Source: Bacilli bacterium
Lineage (GTDB): Bacteria > Bacillota_I > Bacilli_A > RFN20 > CAG-826
Direction: 5' to 3'
DNA length: 64,000 nt
NCBI GenBank assembly: GCA_036649855.1
Contig: JAVWAV010000003.1
Location: 10,286 to 74,285 of the forward strand
The notes beneath the pieces are model-generated. The model worked only from the letters and a program-made list of their open reading frames with translations, searched no databases and was not told the DNA's origin. Shown piece after piece: positions 2,172 to 57,130 of the stretch (the stretch's first letter is position 1; each line of letters opens with the position of its first letter). The translations under genes were made by a program, and so were the position numbers.

Positions 2172-3575
2172 TTAACTAATTAAATTCCAAGTTATTGCAA
2201 TATCTGTGCTATCCACTGCAACTGTTGGATATTCATTTTCTGCCACTGTAATTCTCTTTCCAGAAACAGGATTTACTGTTGTATTCACAAATAATGTATC
2301 AATATCAATAACTAAATCTTTATAATCATTACTCTGAACTACTGCAAAAACTGCAGAAGATAGACCACTATTTAATACATCATTTCCAATACCTAAATTA
2401 TTTATATAATTTCCAATATTTTGTCTTATTTGATATTCTATTGAATCTCTTTGTGTTCCAGGTCCAATTGTAGAATCTAGTGTTATTGCTACATAGCAAT
2501 CTTTCTTCGATGCTCTACTAAACTTTATGTCATATGTTGTTGAATCAATAGTTATTTGAACTGCAATTTGTCCTTCTCCTGTTGAAGCATTATAATTTTG
2601 ATATGCTGTTGGAATTGATGTTCCACAACCAAGAGACTTAAAACTCAATATAGTTTGTGCAATTTTAATATCTTCATCGTCTGTGCTGTAAGTTCCTGTT
2701 CCATCCCATGAACTTTGTCCGTCTACTATTGTCCAAATTGAATGTGGAGTCATTCCATTAGCAGCAGTTTCTGATGAATTATTTTCTATTATATGACAAT
2801 AATTCACATCTGCATTGTTTTCTACTTGTGCTATTAGTCCATCTGTAGTTCCAATTGATTCTTTATATAATTCTTTCTTATATCTTGCTCTCAATTGTGC
2901 ATCTGTTTCTTCCTGATTTCCCAATGATGAACCTACTTCATTTATAAAAGTAATTCCAGATGGAATAGATTGTGTGATAATAGTCATATCTGTATTAGTT
3001 CCATTATTATATGGATTTAATACTATATTTGTAGGATCTGTATTTTCATCTGTTGCTACAAATGTTGCAGTTCCTACATAATTTTCTTGATCTGAACCTG
3101 ATTGTATATTCTTATATTTCTCAATAGATAATATAGATGTATTTATCCATTTATTATTATTAGAGTCTTGAAGTGTTATCTCTCCAATTTGAAGAATATA
3201 TGGTCTTTCAATAGCACTATTCTGATCTATGGTTGCCTTTATCAAAACTGTGCTATTTTGTTCTGCCTTTCTTGTAATACCTACAAATGATACAACATTA
3301 TCTAGATTTGTTCCTGCTGCACCTGTAAAGGACAGTGTATTATATAATTTCTGCGTTGCACCTCCAACTTCTGCTAAACTCCCTGCTAACAAGTCTAAAA
3401 ATGAATACCACTCATTTCCTTGTTCTATAACATAATCTTCTCCATATGCTATTTTAGTAAGTGAAATTAAATCTTCTAATATTTCTCCTTTGGATGAAAC
3501 AGTCAATCCCAAAGAATTATCATAATTCATTACACTATTTATAGTTATTTCATCCATCTGATTATACCTCCACAT
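2172..3575 (-). CDS. baseplate J-like wedge protein
   Basis: 467 aa; size, position (after a gp25/W-like gene) and N-terminal region are typical of the Baseplate_J family. Confidence 0.6.
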   Translation of the reverse strand: MWRYNQMDEITINSVMNYDNSLGLTVSSKGEILEDLISLTKIAYGEDYVIEQGNEWYSFLDLLAGSLAEVGGATQKLYNTLSFTGAAGTNLDNVVSFVGITRKAEQNSTVLIKATIDQNSAIERPYILQIGEITLQDSNNNKWINTSILSIEKYKNIQSGSDQENYVGTATFVATDENTDPTNIVLNPYNNGTNTDMTIITQSIPSGITFINEVGSSLGNQEETDAQLRARYKKELYKESIGTTDGLIAQVENNADVNYCHIIENNSSETAANGMTPHSIWTIVDGQSSWDGTGTYSTDDEDIKIAQTILSFKSLGCGTSIPTAYQNYNASTGEGQIAVQITIDSTTYDIKFSRASKKDCYVAITLDSTIGPGTQRDSIEYQIRQNIGNYINNLGIGNDVLNSGLSSAVFAVVQSNDYKDLVIDIDTLFVNTTVNPVSGKRITVAENEYPTVAVDSTDIAITWNLIS

Positions 3576-25909: not shown

Positions 25910-28900
25910 TTAATACCATTGTTGTGAATATCCTTTAACATAAGTTACAACACATCTTAAACAACCTGCCATACCTTCGTCTAAGGTATTTGTTTGGTCT
26001 ACACCTCTCTCACGACTCTGTTCTGTAATTCTTAATTTAGCAATATCATTTATTGTTTGCTTACATTCTTTAGATACTTTTATTTTTTTCTTAAATAATC
26101 CTGTCTTCATTATATTTATCGATACATCTCTATCTCTTTCATCATATTTTATAACATTGTAAACATTTGTTAATAACATTGATAATCTATTTTGTGGAGA
26201 AGTATCTAGTATTGTGTTTCCTGGTAAAACTTCATTTCTGCTGAATTCTTCGAATGCCTGTATTCCTCTGAATACTCTTTCTCCTACTACAATAAATTCA
26301 TCTGTAAAATTATCTTGCATTATTTCTGTTACTTTTATTATCTCTCCAGATACTGTTGCTCCATAAATTAAGAAATTAGTTTTATTTATTTCTTCACTGC
26401 TTATAATATTTTGAGAACTGAATGCACCTGTATATACTCCGAGTTGTCTCTGAGTGAAATGATATATAACTAATTGTGCAAAAGCATCTGTAATATCATC
26501 ATGAGCAATTAATGGAAATTTCTTTAATTGCTGAATTAAATACATAACTTTATCTGTTCTAGCAAATCTAACTAATCCTTTTTCCATATATACTGATGCT
26601 AATTCTAGTCTCTGCATTTTACTTCGTGTTCCTGGATTAAATGCTACAAGTCCTGCAACATCCTTCGCTAAGTCCTGTATTAATGCTGATCCATTCGCTT
26701 TGTCTTCTACTACTTGAATTATTGAAGGATCTATAATTTGCATTCTTGTAAATAATTCTTTTTCAGCAACATATCCCAAGTGTTCTTCAAATGCGTCTGT
26801 TATTACTAATTCATTATCTTTACTATATGCTTCTGTAAATCCATGATAATCTGATGTTTCTTTATCTTTTACAGGACAGTCATGAGATGCATAATGGAAC
26901 TCTGCTAATGCTGTAAATTCTTCTAATTCTTTATCTTCGATATAATGTATCATATTTTCTTTGATAACATTTAATCTACTCTCTCCTGGATTTTGGTTAT
27001 ACTGTGTTTCAAAATCTTCAGATCCAATTTCCATCTTTAACTGAGTATAATCTCCAAATCTTTCTGCCCATAGTAAATCACCTTTCTTAATTTGCTTAAC
27101 CATTCCAGAACATGGATAAATAAATGTTTGATCATGACTCGCTACTGCTTGTATTTCAGTGTGACTGTAAATTAGTCGAAGTCCTTTATCCTCTGCAATT
27201 AAATCAGAAATATCACCATTTCCAATTCTTTGCATAATATGCCAAATTACACCTGTTGTCTTATTATTAAGACGAGATGGCATTGTTGTTTTGTAATAAT
27301 CTCTTGCATGTAATAATACTGCTCCATCCATTCTTGCATCTGCTACTGATATCAAATCATCGTTAATAATAATATCAGAACCAAATCCTGTAAACTTATC
27401 CATAGCAACTGAGTATGTCTTACCACCATTTCTTAATTCAAGACAATCTGCTGTATTCTTAGATAATCCAAGATTAATCTCATTTCCAAAATAATATTTA
27501 TATTTTTCGCTATTGAATAATTTCTGTTTCTTTATAATCATTTCTCCAGACAAGTTCTTACTGTGAGAAACAGATGTAACTGTAACTGGAGTATTTATAA
27601 TAGTCCATGATGGTCCTAAAATATTCATTATTGTTGAATTATGTGTCTGAATTAATGTTCTACCTGCTAGATACATTCCTCCCTCTACAGTTATACAGTT
27701 TCCTTCTTCTGGAATATCTAATTTATTTATTGATGTGATAGATATTCTTCTCTGTTTTGAAAAAATATTTAATTGTTTTCTTGGTATTCTACATGGTATT
27801 TCAAATGTAGGATTAAACCCAATATAATAACCGTCCTTTTTTGATATAATACCGTCCGCTTTTTGAATAGTTATTGAGGTCTTCCAACCAAATGATGCAA
27901 TCAGTGTTAAGATATCATCTTTTAATCTCTCGGAAGTAGTTATGAAGAAGTACCTGTGCTCATCTTTAATTAGACTGCCATCTGTGTCTATAAGTCCTGC
28001 CAACAAATCAAGTCTTTGTTCTACAGATGCTGTTAAGTACTCTTGAGGTATATGTTTTGTATCTTTATCTTTTGGAAAGCATAGACTTAATTTTTGTAAG
28101 TCTAGTCTCATAATTTTATCGAACTCATATTGAATACTTTTTCCCCACCCGCAGTCGTTTATCCATTTATTATGTATTCTATAATGTTTCTCTACTTCAT
28201 TTATTACTTCCATATCATCTATTCCAGCAGTGATTAATTGATGATTTGTGTTCCCATCTCCCAGCCATGCTCCTAGAACATATGGATTTACAGGTAAGAC
28301 TTTATCTTCCCCTAAAACTGCTGTTCTATTCTCCAAATGAAATCTATAACCATTTCCTCGAACATTTCCCATTTTTGGACTTATTCTTAATTTATTAACA
28401 AGATACTCTGTTTCTACTGTTTTTACTTTATTTGCAAAATTATCATGAACTTTCCACAAATGCTTTGAATTGCACTTAATCGTCTCGCCATTGCTGAATA
28501 CGACCTCTAAATCAGCAACATCTTTAGGATGAACTTTTATAACTTTCACAAATCTTCCGCCATCAGAAATTACCTCATCTCCTACAACTAAATCTCCATG
28601 ATTCTTCCACCCATTTCTTGTCAGAATTGGTGTATTATTTGCTAGGAGTTTCATATGCCGTGGTGCGATGTTCAAGTCGTGGTTACGAGTATGTGTTCCA
28701 TCTGGCAATAAATGATCTCTTACATCACAGTGTCCACCTGATTCTTTTTGTATCTTTTCATATTCTTCATCACTTATCCATTCTCCCCAAATATATTGAG
28801 GTAGAAAATGTTTAATAGAATATTGATAACATTCACATAAATATTGTATCAACCAACAATCACTAAATGGACTGGTCTCATAAGAATCCCACATCTCTTT

Positions 28901-28969
28901 TACAAATTCATATAGATTCTTTTTAATTAACCATGTCTTTAATAATTTAATATTTACTATTGTTGACAT
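25910..28969 (-). CDS. terminase large subunit interrupted by an intein
   Basis: Exteins carry ..IAPRHMK|..|STIMN (Walker A region), IIINDDLIS (Walker B) and C-terminal HDDITDAF (nuclease). The 337-aa insert has intein and LAGLIDADG blocks. Confidence 0.85.
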   Translation of the reverse strand: MSTIVNIKLLKTWLIKKNLYEFVKEMWDSYETSPFSDCWLIQYLCECYQYSIKHFLPQYIWGEWISDEEYEKIQKESGGHCDVRDHLLPDGTHTRNHDLNIAPRHMKLLANNTPILTRNGWKNHGDLVVGDEVISDGGRFVKVIKVHPKDVADLEVVFSNGETIKCNSKHLWKVHDNFANKVKTVETEYLVNKLRISPKMGNVRGNGYRFHLENRTAVLGEDKVLPVNPYVLGAWLGDGNTNHQLITAGIDDMEVINEVEKHYRIHNKWINDCGWGKSIQYEFDKIMRLDLQKLSLCFPKDKDTKHIPQEYLTASVEQRLDLLAGLIDTDGSLIKDEHRYFFITTSERLKDDILTLIASFGWKTSITIQKADGIISKKDGYYIGFNPTFEIPCRIPRKQLNIFSKQRRISITSINKLDIPEEGNCITVEGGMYLAGRTLIQTHNSTIMNILGPSWTIINTPVTVTSVSHSKNLSGEMIIKKQKLFNSEKYKYYFGNEINLGLSKNTADCLELRNGGKTYSVAMDKFTGFGSDIIINDDLISVADARMDGAVLLHARDYYKTTMPSRLNNKTTGVIWHIMQRIGNGDISDLIAEDKGLRLIYSHTEIQAVASHDQTFIYPCSGMVKQIKKGDLLWAERFGDYTQLKMEIGSEDFETQYNQNPGESRLNVIKENMIHYIEDKELEEFTALAEFHYASHDCPVKDKETSDYHGFTEAYSKDNELVITDAFEEHLGYVAEKELFTRMQIIDPSIIQVVEDKANGSALIQDLAKDVAGLVAFNPGTRSKMQRLELASVYMEKGLVRFARTDKVMYLIQQLKKFPLIAHDDITDAFAQLVIYHFTQRQLGVYTGAFSSQNIISSEEINKTNFLIYGATVSGEIIKVTEIMQDNFTDEFIVVGERVFRGIQAFEEFSRNEVLPGNTILDTSPQNRLSMLLTNVYNVIKYDERDRDVSINIMKTGLFKKKIKVSKECKQTINDIAKLRITEQSRERGVDQTNTLDEGMAGCLRCVVTYVKGYSQQWY
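27638..28648 (-). mobile_element. intein with LAGLIDADG homing endonuclease domain (class-3-like WCT pattern)
   Basis: Two LAGLIDADG motifs are present: LGAWLGDGN and LLAGLIDTDGS. The element ends ..LIQTHN|S. There is no Cys/Ser at position 1, but SKHLW, NCITV and QTHN are present. The N-junction is approximate. Confidence 0.75.
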
Positions 28970-30847: not shown

Positions 30848-31204
30848 TGGTGGACATGACGAGAGTCGAACTCGTGTCCATATCATGAATTTATTAGAAT
30901 ATTTTGCTACTATAATCTTTTAGACCGTCCATTTATGATGTTTGAGTGGACATTTCTTATTTACCTCGTCTCATCATAATTCGTTTTTAACTCTTGAATT
31001 ATAGAGTCTCTGATTTCTCAGAATAGTGCTTTATTTTAATCCTCAAATACTAAGCAGCACATTGACTGTATTGTTTTGGAGCAAGAGCATTAATTATTCT
31101 TGCAAATATATTTTGTTTTGCATTTATATTTAGTTGTAGTCTATTCCTACTGTCATATAGAATTCTAATAATTTCAATTGAAATGTCGATACCATTTCAT
31201 GCCC
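30848..31204 (-). ncRNA. ssrA: transfer-messenger RNA (tmRNA)
   Basis: The 5' GGGCATG pairs with the 3' CATGTCC-A-CCA, including G3:U70. GGTATCGAC matches the tmRNA GGAUUCGAC box. The 3' end reads GGAC-ACGAG-TTCGACT-CTCGT. A ~13-bp P2-like helix joins GAAATTATTAGAAT and ATTCTAATAAATTC. An internal frame ends ..GCT GCT TAG. Confidence 0.75.
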
Positions 31205-31371: not shown

Positions 31372-31446
31372 TGGTGGAACGATAGAGATTCGAACTCTAA
31401 CTTCTTGGATGCAAACCAAGTGTGCTACCATTGACACCATCACCCC
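31372..31446 (-). tRNA. tRNA-Ala (anticodon UGC)
   Basis: Full cloverleaf with encoded CCA. Anticodon loop TTTGCAT, T-loop TTCGAAT. The acceptor stem has the G3:U70 Ala identity pair plus G4:U69 and U5:G68. Confidence 0.85.
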
Positions 31447-31680: not shown

Positions 31681-31755
31681 TGGTTGCGAGAGATGGATTT
31701 GAACCATCGATCTCTAGGTTATGAACCTAGCGAGATTCCACTTCTCTATCTCGCG
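31681..31755 (-). tRNA. tRNA-Met (anticodon CAU), initiator-like
   Basis: Full cloverleaf with encoded CCA. Anticodon loop TTCATAA. The C1:A72 mismatch is typical of bacterial initiator tRNA. Confidence 0.85.
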
Positions 31756-45493: not shown

Positions 45494-45774
45494 TAATCCA
45501 TACTCCCATAACTATCATTATAGCAGTTTCCACTTCTGCCAAAATTATTTCTTTCTTCTAAATTTTGCCTTATTCTGCTTTGAACTTGTTTATATAAATC
45601 ATAAGATACACATTCTCTTGCGTATGTTGTAAGATATCTGTGTATGGAAGTCTTGCTACATCTATATAATCCTGCTAAAGATTTCATTGTTCTTCCTGTT
45701 TCAATATATGTTGTGCATATTCTTTCACAAATATATTCCTTACTTCCATTCAATATTCTTTTAATTTCTCGCAT
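45493..45774 (-). CDS. HTH DNA-binding protein
   Basis: MKSLAGLYRCSKTSIHRYL is a helix-turn-helix. Confidence 0.5.
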   Translation of the reverse strand: MREIKRILNGSKEYICERICTTYIETGRTMKSLAGLYRCSKTSIHRYLTTYARECVSYDLYKQVQSRIRQNLEERNNFGRSGNCYNDSYGSMD

Positions 45775-45821
45775 TAAATTTTTCCTCTGTATTATTGTAA
45801 TGAATTTTCAGTATTACTCAT

Positions 45822-46742
45822 TTAATACATTGATATTTCATCTTTTTCCGATCTTATTCTGTCTATCCATGTTGGAAATCTCATTGAATATTTTCCATCT
45901 GCATCTTGAGATATTTCAAAATACTTTATCTCAACTATTTTCCCTAATAGTAGTTCTTTATTATTCCAATATAATTCTCTCTGAGTATCTGTAAATCCAG
46001 AACCTACATCACATTTATATAAGTTTCCTCTATGTTCAAATTCTACTGTTATTCCACCTAATGTGTTTGTAAATCTACCTGTTCCAGAATACATATCTAA
46101 TACTTTTACATCTGCCGTCTTGAATTTTTTAACCTTCAACAAGTTCTTTGTTCTCTTACATTCGTAAGGTGAGTCTGCTATGTTTATCATAACTCCCTCT
46201 CCACCTACTGATGTTATTTTTTCCAAATAATATTCTATTTGTGATTTATCTGAACCTTGATATAGAACCTCAACTTCTTTTATCCATCTTAATTTTGGAC
46301 ACATTCCTTTTATTGAAAGATGTAACATAGACTTTCTACTCGTTGTGTCTGCTATAGATGTTCCTTTCCAGAATTCTTCTGCCTTTACCATGTCAAATAT
46401 ATGGAATATTACTCCTGTTTTTATTCCGTCTCTTCTTACTGCACTTGTAGTTGCTCTAAATAATTCTTCAGTGTCTTCAATATTTGCATCTGCTATTAAT
46501 TCTCCATCATAGAAATATCCATGAGGAAGTCTCTTCAACTCATTTTCAATGTCTAACATATCCTTATATAATTGACCTTGACGAGTATAAAGTATTACAT
46601 TTCCATCTTCTTCAACTAATGCACACATTCTACAATTATGTTTTAGAATTCCATTACAGAAAAAGTTATGATTACCTTCAACTGTTAATTCATAAGTATG
46701 TTCTTTCTGTATTTGTTTCATTCTTTTAATTCTTTCAAACAT
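45822..46742 (-). CDS. ATP-dependent DNA ligase C-terminal fragment preceded by a 36-aa C-intein
   Basis: MFERIKRMKQIQKEHTYELTVEGNHNFFCNGILKHN|CRMCALV.. Ligase motifs FYDGEL, GGEGVMI and LLKVKK follow. Confidence 0.8.
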   Translation of the reverse strand: MFERIKRMKQIQKEHTYELTVEGNHNFFCNGILKHNCRMCALVEEDGNVILYTRQGQLYKDMLDIENELKRLPHGYFYDGELIADANIEDTEELFRATTSAVRRDGIKTGVIFHIFDMVKAEEFWKGTSIADTTSRKSMLHLSIKGMCPKLRWIKEVEVLYQGSDKSQIEYYLEKITSVGGEGVMINIADSPYECKRTKNLLKVKKFKTADVKVLDMYSGTGRFTNTLGGITVEFEHRGNLYKCDVGSGFTDTQRELYWNNKELLLGKIVEIKYFEISQDADGKYSMRFPTWIDRIRSEKDEISMY

Positions 46743-48020
46743 TTATTTAATATCTCCTTATATTCTCCATTTAATATTTCTCTTTCCCAAATATTTATAA
46801 ATTTATATCCAAAACTCTTTATAAAACTTTCTCTTGCTGAGTCCCTTTCCCAAATTTGTTCAGCAGTCATTTTACCCTCGTATGTTGAAATAATATCTGA
46901 CCTTGAATATTCTCTTGGATCTGCATGACAATATCCACCATATATCTCAATCACTAATTTATATTTAGGCAATGTTATATCAGGTATTGCAAATTTAACT
47001 CTCCCATCTGCTGTTTTTATTCTAAATGGACTTCCACATTCGTCAATCACCTCTTCACCTATAGATCTTAAATAATTAGATACAGTATCATGAATTGTGC
47101 TATGACTGCATCCAGGTTTCAATCTACAACTTCCCCAAGCATTTCCGTATTTCTTTATTTTTGTAAGTTGTATTTTCTGTATTATTCCAGGTATATGATC
47201 TGGATTTTCAACTCCATATCGTTCTAAAAATGTTTGTTTTGTTTTAGGAGATTGAAAAGTATTCTTACAACCATACTTATCTATACAAGACTTCTCATAA
47301 TTAGTTCTTGTGAACTCAGTTTTTGCTGCCTCAGAATTATTTCTTAATTTAATATTTCTTTTCTTTAATTCACTTATAAAATAACATAATCTATTTATAT
47401 TTAATGATTTCTCTAAATTATATATTGACTCACCATTTTTATATCTTTTACAGAATTCATTAAGTAAAGTTTCATTTGGTTTATCTAATTCATAGCATTT
47501 TTTACAAATACCTAGATGACCAATATAACTATCTTTATATTTAAATCTTATACCACAACTTGAGATGTATTCAAATTTACTGTATTCTTTTTTTATAAAT
47601 TCAAATTCTTCTTCTGTAATGATATATCTATTTGATTTATTCTTTGTTAAATTAAAATTCAAATCTTTCAATATTCTATAAAGACATGTCTCTGATACAT
47701 TTAATTTAGTTGCAACTTCCTTCAATTTCATCTACAAACACCTCATCTTCAGAGGTTAAATATCTTACTTCTTTCCAACCATTTCTTGTCATTACTAAGT
47801 CGTTTCCTGTTATCTTTAATTTTCTTCCTGTAACTGTTTCAATTTCATACCACTCAGCATTTTTAGACAGTCCCCTCATAAAATTCTCAACTTTCTTAAA
47901 TTCTATCCGTCCAGTTTTCTCGTTATAAGATTTTACCTCTATATTAGAATAACTGTTTTCTAACGAGGATATTGTCTTTAATCCTATATTTGTTTCAACT
48001 AAAGTATCACCTGATACACA
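46635..48020 (-). mobile_element. split intein (IntN 104 aa, IntC 36 aa) with intervening free-standing homing endonuclease gene
   Basis: IntN starts CVSGDTLVETN right after ligase motif I (STKLDG). IntC ends ILKHN|C. The HEG ORF overlaps both flanking ORFs by about 25 nt. Confidence 0.75.
46718..47731 (-). CDS. free-standing homing endonuclease, Vsr/PD-(D/E)XK-like C-terminal domain with N-terminal HTH
   Basis: N-terminal KLNVSETCLYRILKDL HTH. The C-terminal FAIPDITLPKYKLVIEIYGGYCHADPR...KSFGYKFINIWE resembles Vsr/DUF559-type nucleases. Confidence 0.6.
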   Translation of the reverse strand: MKLKEVATKLNVSETCLYRILKDLNFNLTKNKSNRYIITEEEFEFIKKEYSKFEYISSCGIRFKYKDSYIGHLGICKKCYELDKPNETLLNEFCKRYKNGESIYNLEKSLNINRLCYFISELKKRNIKLRNNSEAAKTEFTRTNYEKSCIDKYGCKNTFQSPKTKQTFLERYGVENPDHIPGIIQKIQLTKIKKYGNAWGSCRLKPGCSHSTIHDTVSNYLRSIGEEVIDECGSPFRIKTADGRVKFAIPDITLPKYKLVIEIYGGYCHADPREYSRSDIISTYEGKMTAEQIWERDSARESFIKSFGYKFINIWEREILNGEYKEILNKCLKELKE

Positions 48021-48581
48021 TCCATCTAATTTGGTAGACAATATAAATTCTTTATCATTTATATAATCCGTATTTTCAAAATAATTATCTGCAAGCATTA
48101 CATTAAATACTTTTACAAATCCTTCTCCCATAACTTTATTTAATGTTGTTGCATCCATACCTAGTTTTAATTCTTTTGTAAATATCTTCTTCAACAACTC
48201 TGAATATTCTTTATGTTCGTTAATATAGTCATTTACATATCTAATATCCACATCTCTACCTGTGTTGTTTACTTTCAAATATTCTAATACATCTATATAA
48301 GTTACAATTATCTTCTCTGCAAATAAATCATTAAAAGAATAATTAGAAAAACAGGACTCTTTTTCAATCTTCTTTGAACTGAGTCCTGTTACTATTAAAC
48401 TATCATACAAGAATTTACAGGTCTCTATAAAATAATGATTGTTCGAATTTTCTCTAATTATATTTTCTTTTTCTATCCTAGATGTTGTATTAGATATATT
48501 GTTTATTATTTTATTCAGTTCTTGTAATTTCTCCTGCATTAGTTTCTCCCATATATTTATACACACTAATTCTCTGTGCAT
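47706..48581 (-). CDS. ATP-dependent DNA ligase N-terminal fragment fused to a 104-aa N-intein
   Basis: ..FILSTKLDG|CVSGDTLVETN.. (adenylation motif KxDG, then intein block A). The real start is probably the ATG at 48539 (MQEKLQEL). Confidence 0.8.
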   Translation of the reverse strand: MHRELVCINIWEKLMQEKLQELNKIINNISNTTSRIEKENIIRENSNNHYFIETCKFLYDSLIVTGLSSKKIEKESCFSNYSFNDLFAEKIIVTYIDVLEYLKVNNTGRDVDIRYVNDYINEHKEYSELLKKIFTKELKLGMDATTLNKVMGEGFVKVFNVMLADNYFENTDYINDKEFILSTKLDGCVSGDTLVETNIGLKTISSLENSYSNIEVKSYNEKTGRIEFKKVENFMRGLSKNAEWYEIETVTGRKLKITGNDLVMTRNGWKEVRYLTSEDEVFVDEIEGSCN

Positions 48582-48864
48582 ATTTTATTGAATTCAATAT
48601 TGTTTTTATAAAGAGTTTTCTCTTACTTACTGTTAACTTTTTATTAGGACATATTATAAATTGTTTCATATGTTTTTGATTACTATAATGATCAGATATT
48701 CTTAAATTTACAGTTATTCCTTTTCTATAAGTTAATCTTAAATATGTTGAATTTGTTGTAATACTTCTCTCTACATGATAATGTAATTCTCTGTATTTAG
48801 AAATTATAAATGTGTCCAAGATATTTGCTAAATAACTTCTCTCTAGAAGTGCTATCTGCTTCAA
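48511..48864 (-). CDS. hypothetical protein
   Basis: 117-aa ORF. Confidence 0.5.
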   Translation of the reverse strand: MKQIALLERSYLANILDTFIISKYRELHYHVERSITTNSTYLRLTYRKGITVNLRISDHYSNQKHMKQFIICPNKKLTVSKRKLFIKTILNSIKYAQRISVYKYMGETNAGEITRTE

Positions 48865-48867
48865 TTC

Positions 48868-49047
48868 TTACCATTCTGTGTATTGGCAATTTTGACAAAC
48901 TACTCTTGAACTTAATTTATTATTTTCAGAATATTTTTCAACTATTGGATTCTTGCTTCTACACCCATTTACAATTTTATATTTTACTTCTATTTTATGA
49001 GTATCTATGATAATCATTTCAGAATTACATATTGGACATCTTTTCAT
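48868..49047 (-). CDS. small zinc-ribbon protein (59 aa, below the ORF-track cutoff)
   Basis: AGGAGG RBS and ATG at 49047: MKRCPICNSEM...VVCQNCQYTEW. Confidence 0.5.
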   Translation of the reverse strand: MKRCPICNSEMIIIDTHKIEVKYKIVNGCRSKNPIVEKYSENNKLSSRVVCQNCQYTEW

Positions 49048-55066: not shown

Positions 55067-57130
55067 TTACTCTCTACTTAATAATAATAGTTCTGTTTCT
55101 ACTACTGGTAATACCGAACTCTCGTATTTTATTTTACTATTTAACTCATTTATCTTCTCAAGTAAATTCTTTAATACAGCATTATCAGAACCATTTGTTC
55201 TATTTAACTGTTCTGAATATATTTTTGGAATTGATATATAATCAAAGTTATTAAATAATTTATATTTACATAAATCTGATAGAAAATTAGTAAAACTCCT
55301 AATAAATAATTTTAAGTCTTTTCCTGCTTGATATAATTCTTCAATAATTTGAATTACTTTTTCTTCTTCACAGTTATATATTGCAAAGAATAAATTAAAT
55401 AATACATCATAATCTACACTTCCTAAAATCTTAACTGCGTCTTCTAATGTTACATTATGCTTTAGACTTAAACATTTATCTAACATAGATACTGCATCTC
55501 TCATTCCACCACTTGCTAATTTTGCAATATAATCAGAAACATCTGTTGGAACAGAAATATCTGGATTCAATTCTACTTCTTTATTAATAATATAATTTAT
55601 TCTATTGAATATTCCAGAATAGGATATTCTAGTTAAATCAAATCTCTGAACTCTATTAATTATAGTTGCAGGAATCTTTTGTGGATCTGTTGTGCAAAAT
55701 ATGAATATTGACTTTGCAGGTGGTTCTTCTAATGTTTTTAACATTGCATTCCAAGCATTAATACTCAGCATATGACAATTATGAACTAAGATATTATTAG
55801 CAAAATATGAGTTATGTCCCTCAACTTCTAAATCGTATAAGTAAGTAAATCCTTCTCTACTGTCTGTATCTGAGATATAACTTGAGAACAATTCATCATT
55901 ATATCCTCGTTTGTAAATCTCAACACTGTCCACCCTATACTCTTCAAAAATTCCGTCTTCTTTGTATCCTGCTGCAAACGATCTCTCAATTTGTGGGAAG
56001 CACCATCCACCTCTATCGCCAACTTTATCTCTCTCCATCCTAGGTCTACTTTGTAATTGGTAGGATACCCCGAGTCTCTGCTCATTTTCGTTGGTATTGC
56101 TAACTCTAATTCGTATTTCTGGTTCAACATCTTCCAAAGAGTTAACTGAGGTTTTGTATAACTCCCATTTCCACCTCTCACTGTAAAATAATGATTCCCA
56201 TTCTCCTTCCGAGTATTCTTCATTTTTTCCATTGTTTCTAGGTTGCTCATTGGATTCTTTAATTTCATTCGTTCTGATGTTTTCTTCCAAAAATCTCTCA
56301 TTTTCTGCGATGGTTCTCTCGTCCTTGATAATTCCAAACTTTGATTTCTCAATAATTGAGCGCATTCCTTTGAACAAGTCTGAACTGAAGAACTTATAGT
56401 AGTCTGGAATTCCTTTCCACAAATTTTGCAATTCTTCATCAATCTTCTCTTCATAGCATTTCTTGCTAATCTGATCTTTGCACATTCCTTTGAGCAACAT
56501 CTCTTTCCTGTGAACCAATAAAACACTTTTCCACAGTTTGTGCATATATTCTTTACTGTATACTTTTTCTCCATTTCTTAAATGTTGAGCCTCAACCCAA
56601 CCCTCCTCTGTAAAATATAACTCATCTACAGTAGTCAGAGTTGCCTTTCCATTAATTGTAACAATGCACAGTCTGGATATATCTACCTTGTTCTTAAAAG
56701 TATTATTTACTCTGCCTAATCCACACAGATTTTCAACATAGTCTCCCACTTTGATTTCAGATATTTTTTTATATCCCTTATCTGTTGATATTAGAGTATC
56801 TTTATGAAAACATTCATCTACAATGAATACCTTATACTCTGCTTCAATTGACTGATAATTTGCTTTATCTATGATTGATCTCATATCTTCAACACCATTA
56901 TTTGATGCTGCATCCAATTCTGTTAATCCACCCTCACCATGATTTATTTCCTTCGTTAGAATTCTTCCTAGTGTCGTCTTTCCTGTTCCACTAGGACCAA
57001 CAAATAAATAACAATTTCTTATAGTGTTTGTTGCAATTTGATTTTTTAGTATTTCTACAACTTCCTTCTGCTCACTAACATCCTCAAATGAATGTGGTCT
57101 ATATTTTGTATATAATGGAATTACTGCCAT
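55067..57130 (-). CDS. dnaX: DNA polymerase III gamma/tau-like clamp loader ATPase interrupted by a 345-aa intein
   Basis: YRPHSFEDV..LFVGPSGTGKTT..VFIVDE|CFHKDTLIST ... NNILVHN|CHMLSINAWNAMLKTLEEPP. Confidence 0.85.
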   Translation of the reverse strand: MAVIPLYTKYRPHSFEDVSEQKEVVEILKNQIATNTIRNCYLFVGPSGTGKTTLGRILTKEINHGEGGLTELDAASNNGVEDMRSIIDKANYQSIEAEYKVFIVDECFHKDTLISTDKGYKKISEIKVGDYVENLCGLGRVNNTFKNKVDISRLCIVTINGKATLTTVDELYFTEEGWVEAQHLRNGEKVYSKEYMHKLWKSVLLVHRKEMLLKGMCKDQISKKCYEEKIDEELQNLWKGIPDYYKFFSSDLFKGMRSIIEKSKFGIIKDERTIAENERFLEENIRTNEIKESNEQPRNNGKNEEYSEGEWESLFYSERWKWELYKTSVNSLEDVEPEIRIRVSNTNENEQRLGVSYQLQSRPRMERDKVGDRGGWCFPQIERSFAAGYKEDGIFEEYRVDSVEIYKRGYNDELFSSYISDTDSREGFTYLYDLEVEGHNSYFANNILVHNCHMLSINAWNAMLKTLEEPPAKSIFIFCTTDPQKIPATIINRVQRFDLTRISYSGIFNRINYIINKEVELNPDISVPTDVSDYIAKLASGGMRDAVSMLDKCLSLKHNVTLEDAVKILGSVDYDVLFNLFFAIYNCEEEKVIQIIEELYQAGKDLKLFIRSFTNFLSDLCKYKLFNNFDYISIPKIYSEQLNRTNGSDNAVLKNLLEKINELNSKIKYESSVLPVVETELLLLSRE
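55778..56812 (-). mobile_element. intein in the DnaX Walker B/sensor region
   Basis: Starts with Cys after IVDE and ends with HN before Cys+1. The splicing blocks occupy only the first ~85 and last ~26 aa; the interior is E/K/R-rich. Confidence 0.8.
55828..56574 (-). CDS. Vsr/DUF559-like homing endonuclease ORF nested out of frame inside the DnaX intein
   Basis: Two zinc-ribbon units are present (CTNCGKVF..CSKECA; CKICGKEF..CSKECA). The C-terminal YKVDLGWREIKLAIEVDGASHK...LKSIGWTVLRFTNEDI is the DUF559/Vsr-type signature. Confidence 0.7.
   Translation of the reverse strand: MEKKYTVKNICTNCGKVFYWFTGKRCCSKECAKIRLARNAMKRRLMKNCKICGKEFQTTISSSVQTCSKECAQLLRNQSLELSRTREPSQKMRDFWKKTSERMKLKNPMSNLETMEKMKNTRKENGNHYFTVRGGNGSYTKPQLTLWKMLNQKYELELAIPTKMSRDSGYPTNYKVDLGWREIKLAIEVDGASHKLRDRLQQDTKKTEFLKSIGWTVLRFTNEDIMMNCSQVISQIQTVEKDLLTYTI

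Follow-up and report, generated by a model that had tools for sequence, protein, structure and literature searches.

The fractured-gene arrangement, in which adjacent genes carry the two halves of a split intein and a separate endonuclease gene lies between them, was defined from 26 metagenomic loci by Dassa et al. 2009 (PMC2677866). DNA ligase was among the eight host types, represented by one Lake Gatun locus; the same study already described the family of Vsr-like endonucleases and noted that the endonuclease gene overlaps the gene downstream of it (PMC2677866). A member of this endonuclease family was later characterized by Taylor et al. 2011 (PMC3239194). Here we analysed a 64,000-nucleotide (nt) stretch of DNA (contig JAVWAV010000003.1, positions 10,286–74,285; hereafter the window), in which a low-GC phage very probably has its ATP-dependent DNA ligase gene fractured by a 1,386-nt composite selfish element in motif I. 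A first-pass annotation of the letters of the window had proposed a fractured gene in the sense of Dassa et al. 2009, with a split intein, a separate Vsr-like gene between the halves and exteins that rebuild a full ligase, and this proposal is upheld by the evidence below.

The locus shares with the Dassa fractured genes (gp41-1, gp41-8, NrdJ-1, IMPDH-1 and the Lake Gatun ligase; PMC2677866) a Vsr-like endonuclease, a phage context, an endonuclease gene whose 3′ end overlaps the start of the C-intein (IntC) gene, and the combination of an acidic N-intein (IntN) with a basic IntC. In the window there is an overlap at the other end as well, between the start of the endonuclease gene and the IntN gene, whereas at the Dassa loci the endonuclease gene follows an intergenic hairpin region; block B of the window intein also differs from those of the Dassa fractured genes in having Asp in place of His. 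The Dassa ligase locus is a single partial metagenomic read assembly that is closest to the ligase of phage Felix 01. Unlike it, the window locus is complete within a 64-kb phage context and comes with empty alleles and a documented recent transfer.

Three overlapping genes on the minus strand make up the locus, in a region of uniformly low GC content (~29%) and single orientation. Open reading frame 1 (ORF1; 47706–48581, 291 amino acids (aa)) encodes the N-extein (aa 1–187; 48021..48581), that is, the DNA-binding domain and the start of the adenylation domain up to motif I at K184-L-D-G187. It continues as a 104-aa IntN (47709..48020; CVSGDT...EGSCN), with Cys1 at C188 of ORF1 and a stop codon at 47706–47708. 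ORF2 (46718–47731, 337 aa) is the free-standing endonuclease gene. ORF3 (45822–46742, 306 aa) opens with a 36-aa IntC (46635..46742), which starts MFERIK...HTYELTVEGNHNFFCNGILKHN and ends NGILKHN, and then encodes the C-extein (45822..46634), which begins at the +1 Cys (CRMCALV...) and holds motifs III, IV and V and the OB domain. The mobile cassette of IntN, endonuclease gene and IntC therefore spans 46635..48020 (1,386 nt). The first-pass description of ORF1 as the ligase N terminus up to STKLDG followed by a 104-aa N-intein was correct in coordinates and features, and that of ORF3 as a 36-aa C-intein, CRMCALV and the ligase motifs FYDGEL, EGVMI and LLKVKK is borne out by the sequence and by profiles. 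The overlaps that it had put at about 25 nt measure, by direct reading of the sequence, 26 nt between the 3′ end of the IntN gene and the 5′ end of the endonuclease gene (47706..47731) and 25 nt between the 3′ end of the endonuclease gene and the 5′ end of the IntC gene (46718..46742).

Signals for translation accompany each gene. The likely true start of ORF1 is M15 (ATG at 48539, with GGGAG ahead of it), where gene calls in relatives begin (MQEK). The ATG of ORF2 directly follows an in-frame TAG and is served by a Shine–Dalgarno (SD)-like GAGGTG at 47739–47744 (7-nt spacer), and that of ORF3 directly follows a TAA, with an SD-like AAGGAG at 46754–46759 (11-nt spacer). We found no terminators inside the locus, and promoter-like sites there were below the shuffle expectation. 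Near-identical DNA was not found among deposited phages.

The two exteins together form a full ligase. Removal of the intein parts in silico gave a spliced protein of 443–457 aa. ORF1 matches positions 81–250 of the phrog_114 ligase profile and ORF3 positions 250–504, so that the break falls cleanly at one profile position, and ORF3 carries DNA_ligase_A_M (PF01068) and DNA_ligase_OB_2 (PF14743) above the Pfam cut-offs. Over its full length (100% coverage), the joined ligase gives a single alignment to uninterrupted ligases of Clostridioides and Bacillus phages (~39% identity), and its residues 9–428 align with a solved 442-aa ligase (6rau, E = 1.8e-40). In this alignment the N-extein covers 6rau residues 9 to ~170, the junction K-L-D-G-C-R falls on K-L-D-G-V-R, and motifs III (FYDGEL), IV (EGVMI) and V (LLKVKK) are aligned. 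The nucleotidyltransferase motifs I, III, IV and V and the OB domain identify the protein as an ATP-dependent DNA ligase, and its coverage by two adjacent ORFs on the same strand is that of a fractured gene. The insertion point lies inside motif I, between the Gly and the next residue of KxDGxR.

The inserted halves belong to one intein. IntN and IntC both pass curated profiles (TIGR01445 intein_Nterm, 29.5 bits versus a cut-off of 24.5; TIGR01443 intein_Cterm, 22.3 bits versus 15.6) and so match intein blocks A/B and F/G; absence of such matches was among the outcomes that the first-pass annotation had named as refuting its reading. When joined, their residues 3–140 align end to end with the solved mini-inteins Spl DnaX (7cfv, E = 6.5e-14), DnaB (4o1r, E = 8e-13), NrdJ-1 (8ubs, E = 6e-10) and Ssp DnaB (1mi8, E = 3e-9), and IntC alone falls on the C-terminal strands of 7cfv and 4o1r. 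NrdJ-1, a split intein from a Dassa fractured gene, is thus a detectable sequence relative of the window intein. These alignments support the view that the joined halves would form a complete HINT domain, split at the canonical endonuclease-insertion position. IntN is acidic (net charge −4, isoelectric point (pI) 4.9) and IntC basic (pI 9.0; net +3 over its first 16 residues), the polarity reported for natural split inteins (PMC2677866). The cyanobacterial DnaE inteins (Ssp and Npu) likewise are naturally split class 1 inteins, divided into ~100 and 36 aa, that rebuild a replication enzyme, as is predicted for the window. The genes for the DnaE halves are widely separated in the genome and have no endonuclease, whereas the halves in the window are neighbours with an endonuclease gene between them.

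ORF1 and ORF3 share a reading frame and ORF2 uses another, with ~1 kb of stop-filled DNA parting ORF1 from ORF3. The shared frame would also be expected of one continuous intein–ligase gene with an in-frame endonuclease, whose apparent split would be due to a pair of frameshift errors in sequencing or assembly or would be bridged during translation by a pair of programmed ribosomal frameshifts in the overlaps, and an in-frame fusion of the endonuclease to IntC in the related locus L009 shows that fusion is tolerated. Assembly or frameshift error was one of the outcomes that the first-pass annotation had named as capable of overturning its reading. However, the same three-gene layout, with its overlaps, stops and SD motifs, is present in four other assemblies: L006 (Logan SRR25904991), from a phage that is nearly identical; L038 and L039, from two further Logan runs; and L001 (ENA ERZ27287476, 62% protein identity), in which both overlaps are conserved. 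Samples and assemblers differ among them. Recurrence in independent assemblies and diverged relatives shows that the split is not a frameshift artefact. A continuous gene would also require two compensating indels, each within a 25-nt window; each internal ATG directly follows an in-frame stop, the overlaps show no canonical slippery heptamer, and none of 108 homologues is long enough for a contiguous intein. No contiguous (cis) version of the ligase intein was found among these 108 homologues or the IMG/VR ligase loci. We regard a continuous gene as extremely improbable.

The shared frame could alternatively mean that a group I or II intron interrupts the intein coding sequence and harbours the endonuclease ORF, with RNA splicing restoring a contiguous mini-intein; Vsr-like endonucleases do occur in group I introns (PMC3239194). 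Yet Rfam gave no group I or II intron at the gathering score, nor any intron family at E ≤ 10 over 45500–49000, and an intron structure would have no space, since the endonuclease ORF takes up the entire interval and runs into the genes on both sides. An intron is accordingly given next to no probability.

We also considered that the ligase gene is dead, disrupted by the selfish element and decaying. Phage ligases are often dispensable, which makes the essential role given to the enzyme in the first-pass annotation presumptive, and a related clade has a frame change at the same motif. Nei–Gojobori estimates of the ratio of non-synonymous to synonymous substitution (dN/dS) were 0.07–0.14 for IntN, 0.24–0.29 for the endonuclease and 0.06–0.35 for the exteins, and all parts are under purifying selection. 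That the ratio stays far under 1 in the two exteins and the two intein halves, at dS of up to 1.5, speaks against decay, as do the absence of internal stops, the intactness of all ligase motifs and the persistence of the arrangement in lineages without the endonuclease. A dead gene is highly improbable, and a fractured gene with a maintained product remains the preferred reading.

The cassette moves as one unit. Comparison with intein-free ligases of relatives, suggested in the first-pass annotation, yielded an empty allele in the syntenic phage L004, whose upstream genes are ordered as in the window and whose 438-aa ligase is uninterrupted, reading TKLDG/NRMCAVV, with ACTAAATTAGACGGC before and AACAGAATGTGTGCT after the insertion point. 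Since this allele has Asn at +1, the element evidently brings the +1 Cys with it. When the window is compared with L038, 161 of 519 nt (31%) are changed in the N-extein and 95 of 392 nt (24%) in the C-extein, as against only 25 nt (1.8%; 98.2% identity) in the 1,386-nt cassette. The identity starts exactly at the Cys1 codon and runs 14 nt beyond the +1 Cys codon (TGTAGAATGTGTGC), in what looks like a short co-conversion tract. The whole cassette has thus passed recently between diverged ligases, and its conservation amid diverged exteins, with a boundary at Cys1, indicates a probable homing event. In a tree of N-exteins, the three intein-bearing alleles nearest the window each stand beside empty alleles (P0002 with P0004; P0003 with P0011/P0014), and the IntN sequences of these three interspersed alleles are 87–100% identical. 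Such patterns of transfer match what homing would predict; they are no proof that the 337-aa protein is the responsible nuclease.

The product of the middle gene is predicted to be a Vsr-like, EDxHD-type homing endonuclease. It comprises a RacA/MerR-like winged helix-turn-helix (HTH; aa 1–55), a Cys/His-rich segment with a second HTH (aa ~55–125), three K-x-YG-x-N repeats (DUF7487; aa 140–200) and a Vsr-like nuclease domain (aa 212–337) with D251, E262, H269 and D297. Pfam detected DUF7487 above the cut-off and HTH_23 (6.5e-4), DUF559 and Vsr weakly, and NCBIfam returned TIGR00632 vsr (5e-5). An exhaustive HMMER search with the endonuclease gave 4,936 representative clusters at E ≤ 1e-3, which shows that the family is large. 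In an alignment of 52 sequences, D251, E262, H269, P272, D297, R300 and the three repeats are conserved, with D251, E262, H269 and D297 invariant or at least 90% conserved among the 52 homologues. A search of the Protein Data Bank (PDB) with the single sequence gave nothing significant, and matches needed the 52-sequence profile and a predicted structure. With the profile, the top matches of the C-terminal domain were exclusively Vsr-fold nucleases: 3hrl (E = 0.007), Vsr (1vsr/1cw0/1odg, E = 0.13, aligned over the whole 87-residue core) and I-Bth0305I (3r3p, E = 0.39). D251, H269 and D297 sit on D51, H69 and D97 of Vsr, and E262 aligns to F62, the position of the invariant Glu of the homing family (family definition in PMC2677866 and PMC3239194).

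An AlphaFold2 model built from the alignment (mean pLDDT 90) was compared with the PDB using Foldseek, which returned the Vsr–DNA complex 1cw0 (probability 1.00), 3r3p (probability 1.00, TM-score 0.65), 3hrl, 5i44 and 8csh. Residues 1–55 matched RacA, pSK1 Par and MerR-type winged HTH domains (TM-scores 0.6–0.8, root-mean-square deviation ~2 Å), and viral structural neighbours of the model carry the names VSR endonuclease, NUMOD3 or DUF7487. In tblastn searches of deposited phages, the sole match was a Tenacibaculum phage 'VSR endonuclease' at 26% coverage. These results bear out the N-terminal HTH and C-terminal Vsr-like core named in the first-pass annotation. The Vsr-type fold, the conserved catalytic residues and the N-terminal HTH-type DNA-binding region are those of the EDxHD/Vsr-like family, and four independent lines of evidence, weak as the individual E-values are, together point to such a nuclease with a DNA-binding front end unlike that of I-Bth0305I.

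I-Bth0305I, of the EDxHD family (PMC3239194; 3r3p), shares with the window protein an N-terminal HTH-type region, a C-terminal Vsr-fold nuclease with the Glu, Asp, His and Asp positions, and residence in an intervening sequence of a phage DNA-metabolism gene. It is intron-encoded in recA and has two NUMOD-2 motifs, whereas the window protein carries a RacA/MerR-like winged HTH and three DUF7487 repeats; NUMOD-2 was not specifically detected in the N-terminal DNA-binding region. The two are remote in sequence (profile E = 0.39). Relative to the near-identical phage L006, in which the exteins are identical, a patch of the endonuclease gene at ~47370–47609 (aa ~41–120, the Cys/His-rich segment and second HTH) has only 58–78% DNA identity. 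A low-identity patch amid identical exteins implies that the DNA-binding region also recombines on its own, and suggests that modules may be exchanged within it.

Block A of the intein reads CVSGDTLVE, block B K-I-T-G-N-D, block F T-Y-E-L-T-V-E-G-N-H-N-F-F and block G N-G-I-L-K-H-N. Cys1, the block-G His-Asn and the +1 Cys (K-H-N36/C37 of ORF3) are those of a class 1 intein, and block B keeps the Thr of T-x-x-H, with Asp replacing the canonical His (T-G-N-D). Because the HINT match and all other blocks agree with class 1, we consider the His-less block B to mark a variant class 1 intein and not a non-member. The first-pass readings TGND here and TVDE in the DnaX intein of the same window are both confirmed. 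The block-B His is the most conserved intein residue and essential in many inteins, and very few natural inteins lack it (PMC6333167).

The Asp is not peculiar to the window. T-G-N-D (T-E-N-D in L009) occurs in the window and at least five diverged ligase lineages, which form a deep sub-clade of the ligase inteins, and Cys1, the block-B Thr, the block-G His-Asn and the +1 Cys are conserved in all Asp-bearing loci examined. T-G-N-H is kept in the ligase lineages P0065, P0089, L015 and L030 and in all members found in helicases and RNA ligases. At every locus with both halves, block-B Asp goes with Y-E-L in block F and I-L-K-H-N in block G, and block-B His with Y-D-(L/I) or Y-N-L in block F and I-L-(V/I)-H-N in block G; with about five Asp-type and two His-type lineages and no tree correction, this co-variation is a lead and not a result. 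Tentatively, then, and with some doubt on our part, the Asp ligase split inteins could be a mechanistically distinct sub-class, in which a co-evolved trio replaces the His/Asp pair that activates the N-terminal scissile bond. As possible members of this trio, on an equally tentative footing, we propose the Asp at block B position 10, the Glu at block F position 4 and the block-G Lys (I-L-K-H-N), beside a small −1 Gly. The orthologues of the Tko CDC21-1 intein (cited in PMC6333167) are also class 1 inteins that lack the block-B His and need another activation of the N-terminal junction; these archaeal inteins splice in cis, carry a bulky Leu at −1 and compensate through a different residue. The window intein, unlike them, has a −1 Gly and an Asp replacement that co-varies with the block-F Glu and block-G Lys.

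The change of the block-B His, a residue essential in many inteins (PMC6333167), to Asp also leaves room for another reading, in which the intein halves have lost splicing and only dock, keeping the two pieces of the ligase together non-covalently. Assembly without splicing has a precedent in the fragmented ribonucleotide reductase NrdA of phage Aeh1 (PMC3045599). As at the window locus, a DNA-metabolism gene (nrdA) is cut there into two ORFs by a free-standing homing-endonuclease gene (mobE), but the pieces reportedly carry no intein and reassemble non-covalently. Docking would leave motif I of the window ligase cut between the G and x-R, with 140 aa of intein in the active site. It also fits poorly with the conservation, noted above, of the splice residues at the Asp-bearing loci examined, and with a +1 Cys that the element itself brings in place of the Asn of the empty allele, which makes sense only for a nucleophile in use. 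Natural His-less inteins that splice do exist, such as Tko CDC21-1 (cited in PMC6333167). Docking without splicing is improbable, if less so than the rivals treated above.

For the preferred reading, a fractured gene whose product is spliced in trans, we infer co-transcription, a splicing chemistry that works without the block-B His, and a cleavage activity together with its target. The three genes would probably be transcribed together and their translation probably coupled through the 25–26-nt overlaps, which carry their own ribosome-binding sites. The acidic IntN and basic IntC would then associate, and protein trans-splicing would join the ligase pieces, recreating K-L-D-G-C-R and an active ligase; the conserved splice residues and the purifying selection lend this indirect support. 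With its winged-HTH and repeat modules contacting DNA, the endonuclease would cleave ligase alleles that lack the intein in co-infected cells, and repair would copy the whole cassette and the +1 Cys codon into the new gene. Indirect evidence for such cleavage, predicted to fall near the insertion site, is the transfer of the cassette with sharp edges between diverged ligase genes.

Four points weigh against this account. Splicing and DNA cleavage rest on inference and not on experiment. The missing block-B His means that activity needs a compensating mechanism, at which only the co-variation hints. No single match of the nuclease domain to Vsr or I-Bth0305I is strong (E = 0.007–0.4), although the matches agree among themselves. 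The phage may not need a ligase of its own, so that selection on the exteins is not strict proof that the spliced product is the functional form.

The insertion point K-x-D-G/C holds related split inteins in many diverged phage ligases, in a range of states. The window, L006, L001, L038, L013, L014 and L030 have a free-standing Vsr-like gene between the halves. In L009 (4001–6417), the Vsr-like endonuclease is fused in frame to IntC and the ligase C-extein (537–543 aa) and IntN is a separate ORF, so that this locus stands midway between a fractured gene and a canonical intein with its endonuclease inside; directly downstream is a GIY-YIG gene. In L007, L008 and L028 (4810–5040; L007/L028 is a 128-kb contig), the ligase intein is split and no endonuclease gene is present. 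The 228-nt gap in L007/L028 encodes the last ~45 endonuclease codons (ESFGYTVYVIWESQVKDGSYKNIVDFILKN...) and ends in the ribosome-binding site and ATG of the IntC gene, and the locus is what decay has left, a split intein and little else; like DnaE it lacks the endonuclease, of which only the 228-nt remnant persists. Because L007/L028 lost the endonuclease gene and kept both halves intact, the ligase there must depend on the split intein alone. In L010 (4893–6546), an IS200/IS605 element (TnpB/OrfB on the opposite strand and a Y1 transposase) directly follows the gene for the ligase N-fragment and IntN, in the usual place of the endonuclease gene; the contig stops before any IntC gene.

The IntN family is also found outside DNA ligases. 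Members (…W-Y/F-E-I-E…K-I-T-G-N-H) follow helicase motif II (V-D-E/C) in many IMG/VR phage contigs (L016–L023, L026, L027, L029, L031, L032 and L034). Most of these loci are split, the N-fragment ORF ending soon after IntN and being followed by a ~280–340-aa ORF and then an IntC-bearing ORF. In L024, the family occupies an RNA-ligase-like K-I-H-G/C site with a Vsr-like gene between the halves.

A clade of gut phages (~110–120-kb contigs; L011, L012, L036 and L037) has the homologous ligase gene, in which a single additional base separates the Asp codon of motif I from its Gly codon (AAG YTN GAC-C-GGN ATA MGR), 3 nt from the intein insertion point, where the 0-frame codon is the rare Arg codon CGG. 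The site lies at 3556–3570 in L011, at the same position in L012, and at ~2996–3010 in L036 and L037. Between L011 and L036, omega is 0.16 for the N-part (frame 0) and 0.10 for the C-part (frame +1) at dS of 0.7–1.0, indicating strong purifying selection; L037 carries a second frame break, and the intact alleles P0054 and P0066 are nested in the clade. Our best guess is that these genes would be read by programmed +1 frameshifting at a hungry codon; a link between the extra base and resistance to the endonuclease is pure speculation.

Elsewhere in the window, a DnaX/clamp-loader ORF (55067–57130, minus strand, 687 aa) contains a contiguous intein (FIVDE/CFHKDTL...YFANNILVHN/CHML) with Glu at the block-B His position (T-V-D-E) and ordinary F and G blocks. 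Nested within it in a different frame is a 248-aa ORF (55828–56574, minus strand) that encodes a nuclease of the DUF559/Vsr superfamily (Pfam 7.6e-16, above the cut-off) with Zn-ribbon-like motifs. Both frames stay open for ~750 nt in this 29%-GC genome, the DnaX frame encoding a K/E-rich linker. The nested ORF resembles an endonuclease gene standing on its own, housed out of frame by an intein that stays whole, and would represent a sister condition to that of the fractured ligase. It has no significant pairwise similarity to the ligase-locus endonuclease, and an exact-match look-up found it not on record. A 1,019-aa ORF (25910–28969, minus strand) with LAGLIDADG_3 at aa 318–369 and no other Pfam match is probably a third intein-containing gene of the phage. 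ARAGORN called a transfer-messenger RNA (tmRNA; tag AKQNIFARIINALAPKQYSQCAA) adjoining tRNA-Ala and tRNA-Met, with calls at 30848–31204, 31372–31446 and 31681–31755, all on the minus strand; Rfam confirms the two tRNAs and gives no tmRNA family at the gathering score, which makes the tmRNA call doubtful.

The arrangement is already known from Dassa et al. 2009, and the locus extends a known phenomenon and leaves current understanding unchanged. The analysis adds sequence-level proof that the cassette is transferred as a unit and, as features of modest novelty, a set of states at one site and a clade-wide His-to-Asp variant. The locus is a complete and well-supported natural example of a gene whose product would require protein trans-splicing, with an empty allele and intermediates in relatives, and the sequences suffice to reveal an intein–endonuclease–intein cassette moving as one unit. 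At one site they span an empty allele, a free-standing endonuclease, an endonuclease fused to IntC, an endonuclease remnant and a locus invaded by an insertion sequence. If these states are what they seem, the relatives would be the first stepwise natural record of the birth of a fractured gene, its spread as a unit and its decay, a reading that, taken together with the distinct Asp sub-class, we consider possible but not likely. The combination of phage context, empty allele and intermediate states makes the gene-breaking model of Dassa 2009 directly testable at one site. The Asp clade, with its changes in blocks F and G, is a natural experiment on inteins that lack their most conserved residue. 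If the proposed sub-class is real and its inteins are active, it would represent a new catalytic solution for protein splicing and a ready orthogonal split-intein scaffold. The block-B Asp variant may also yield a new orthogonal split intein for protein engineering.

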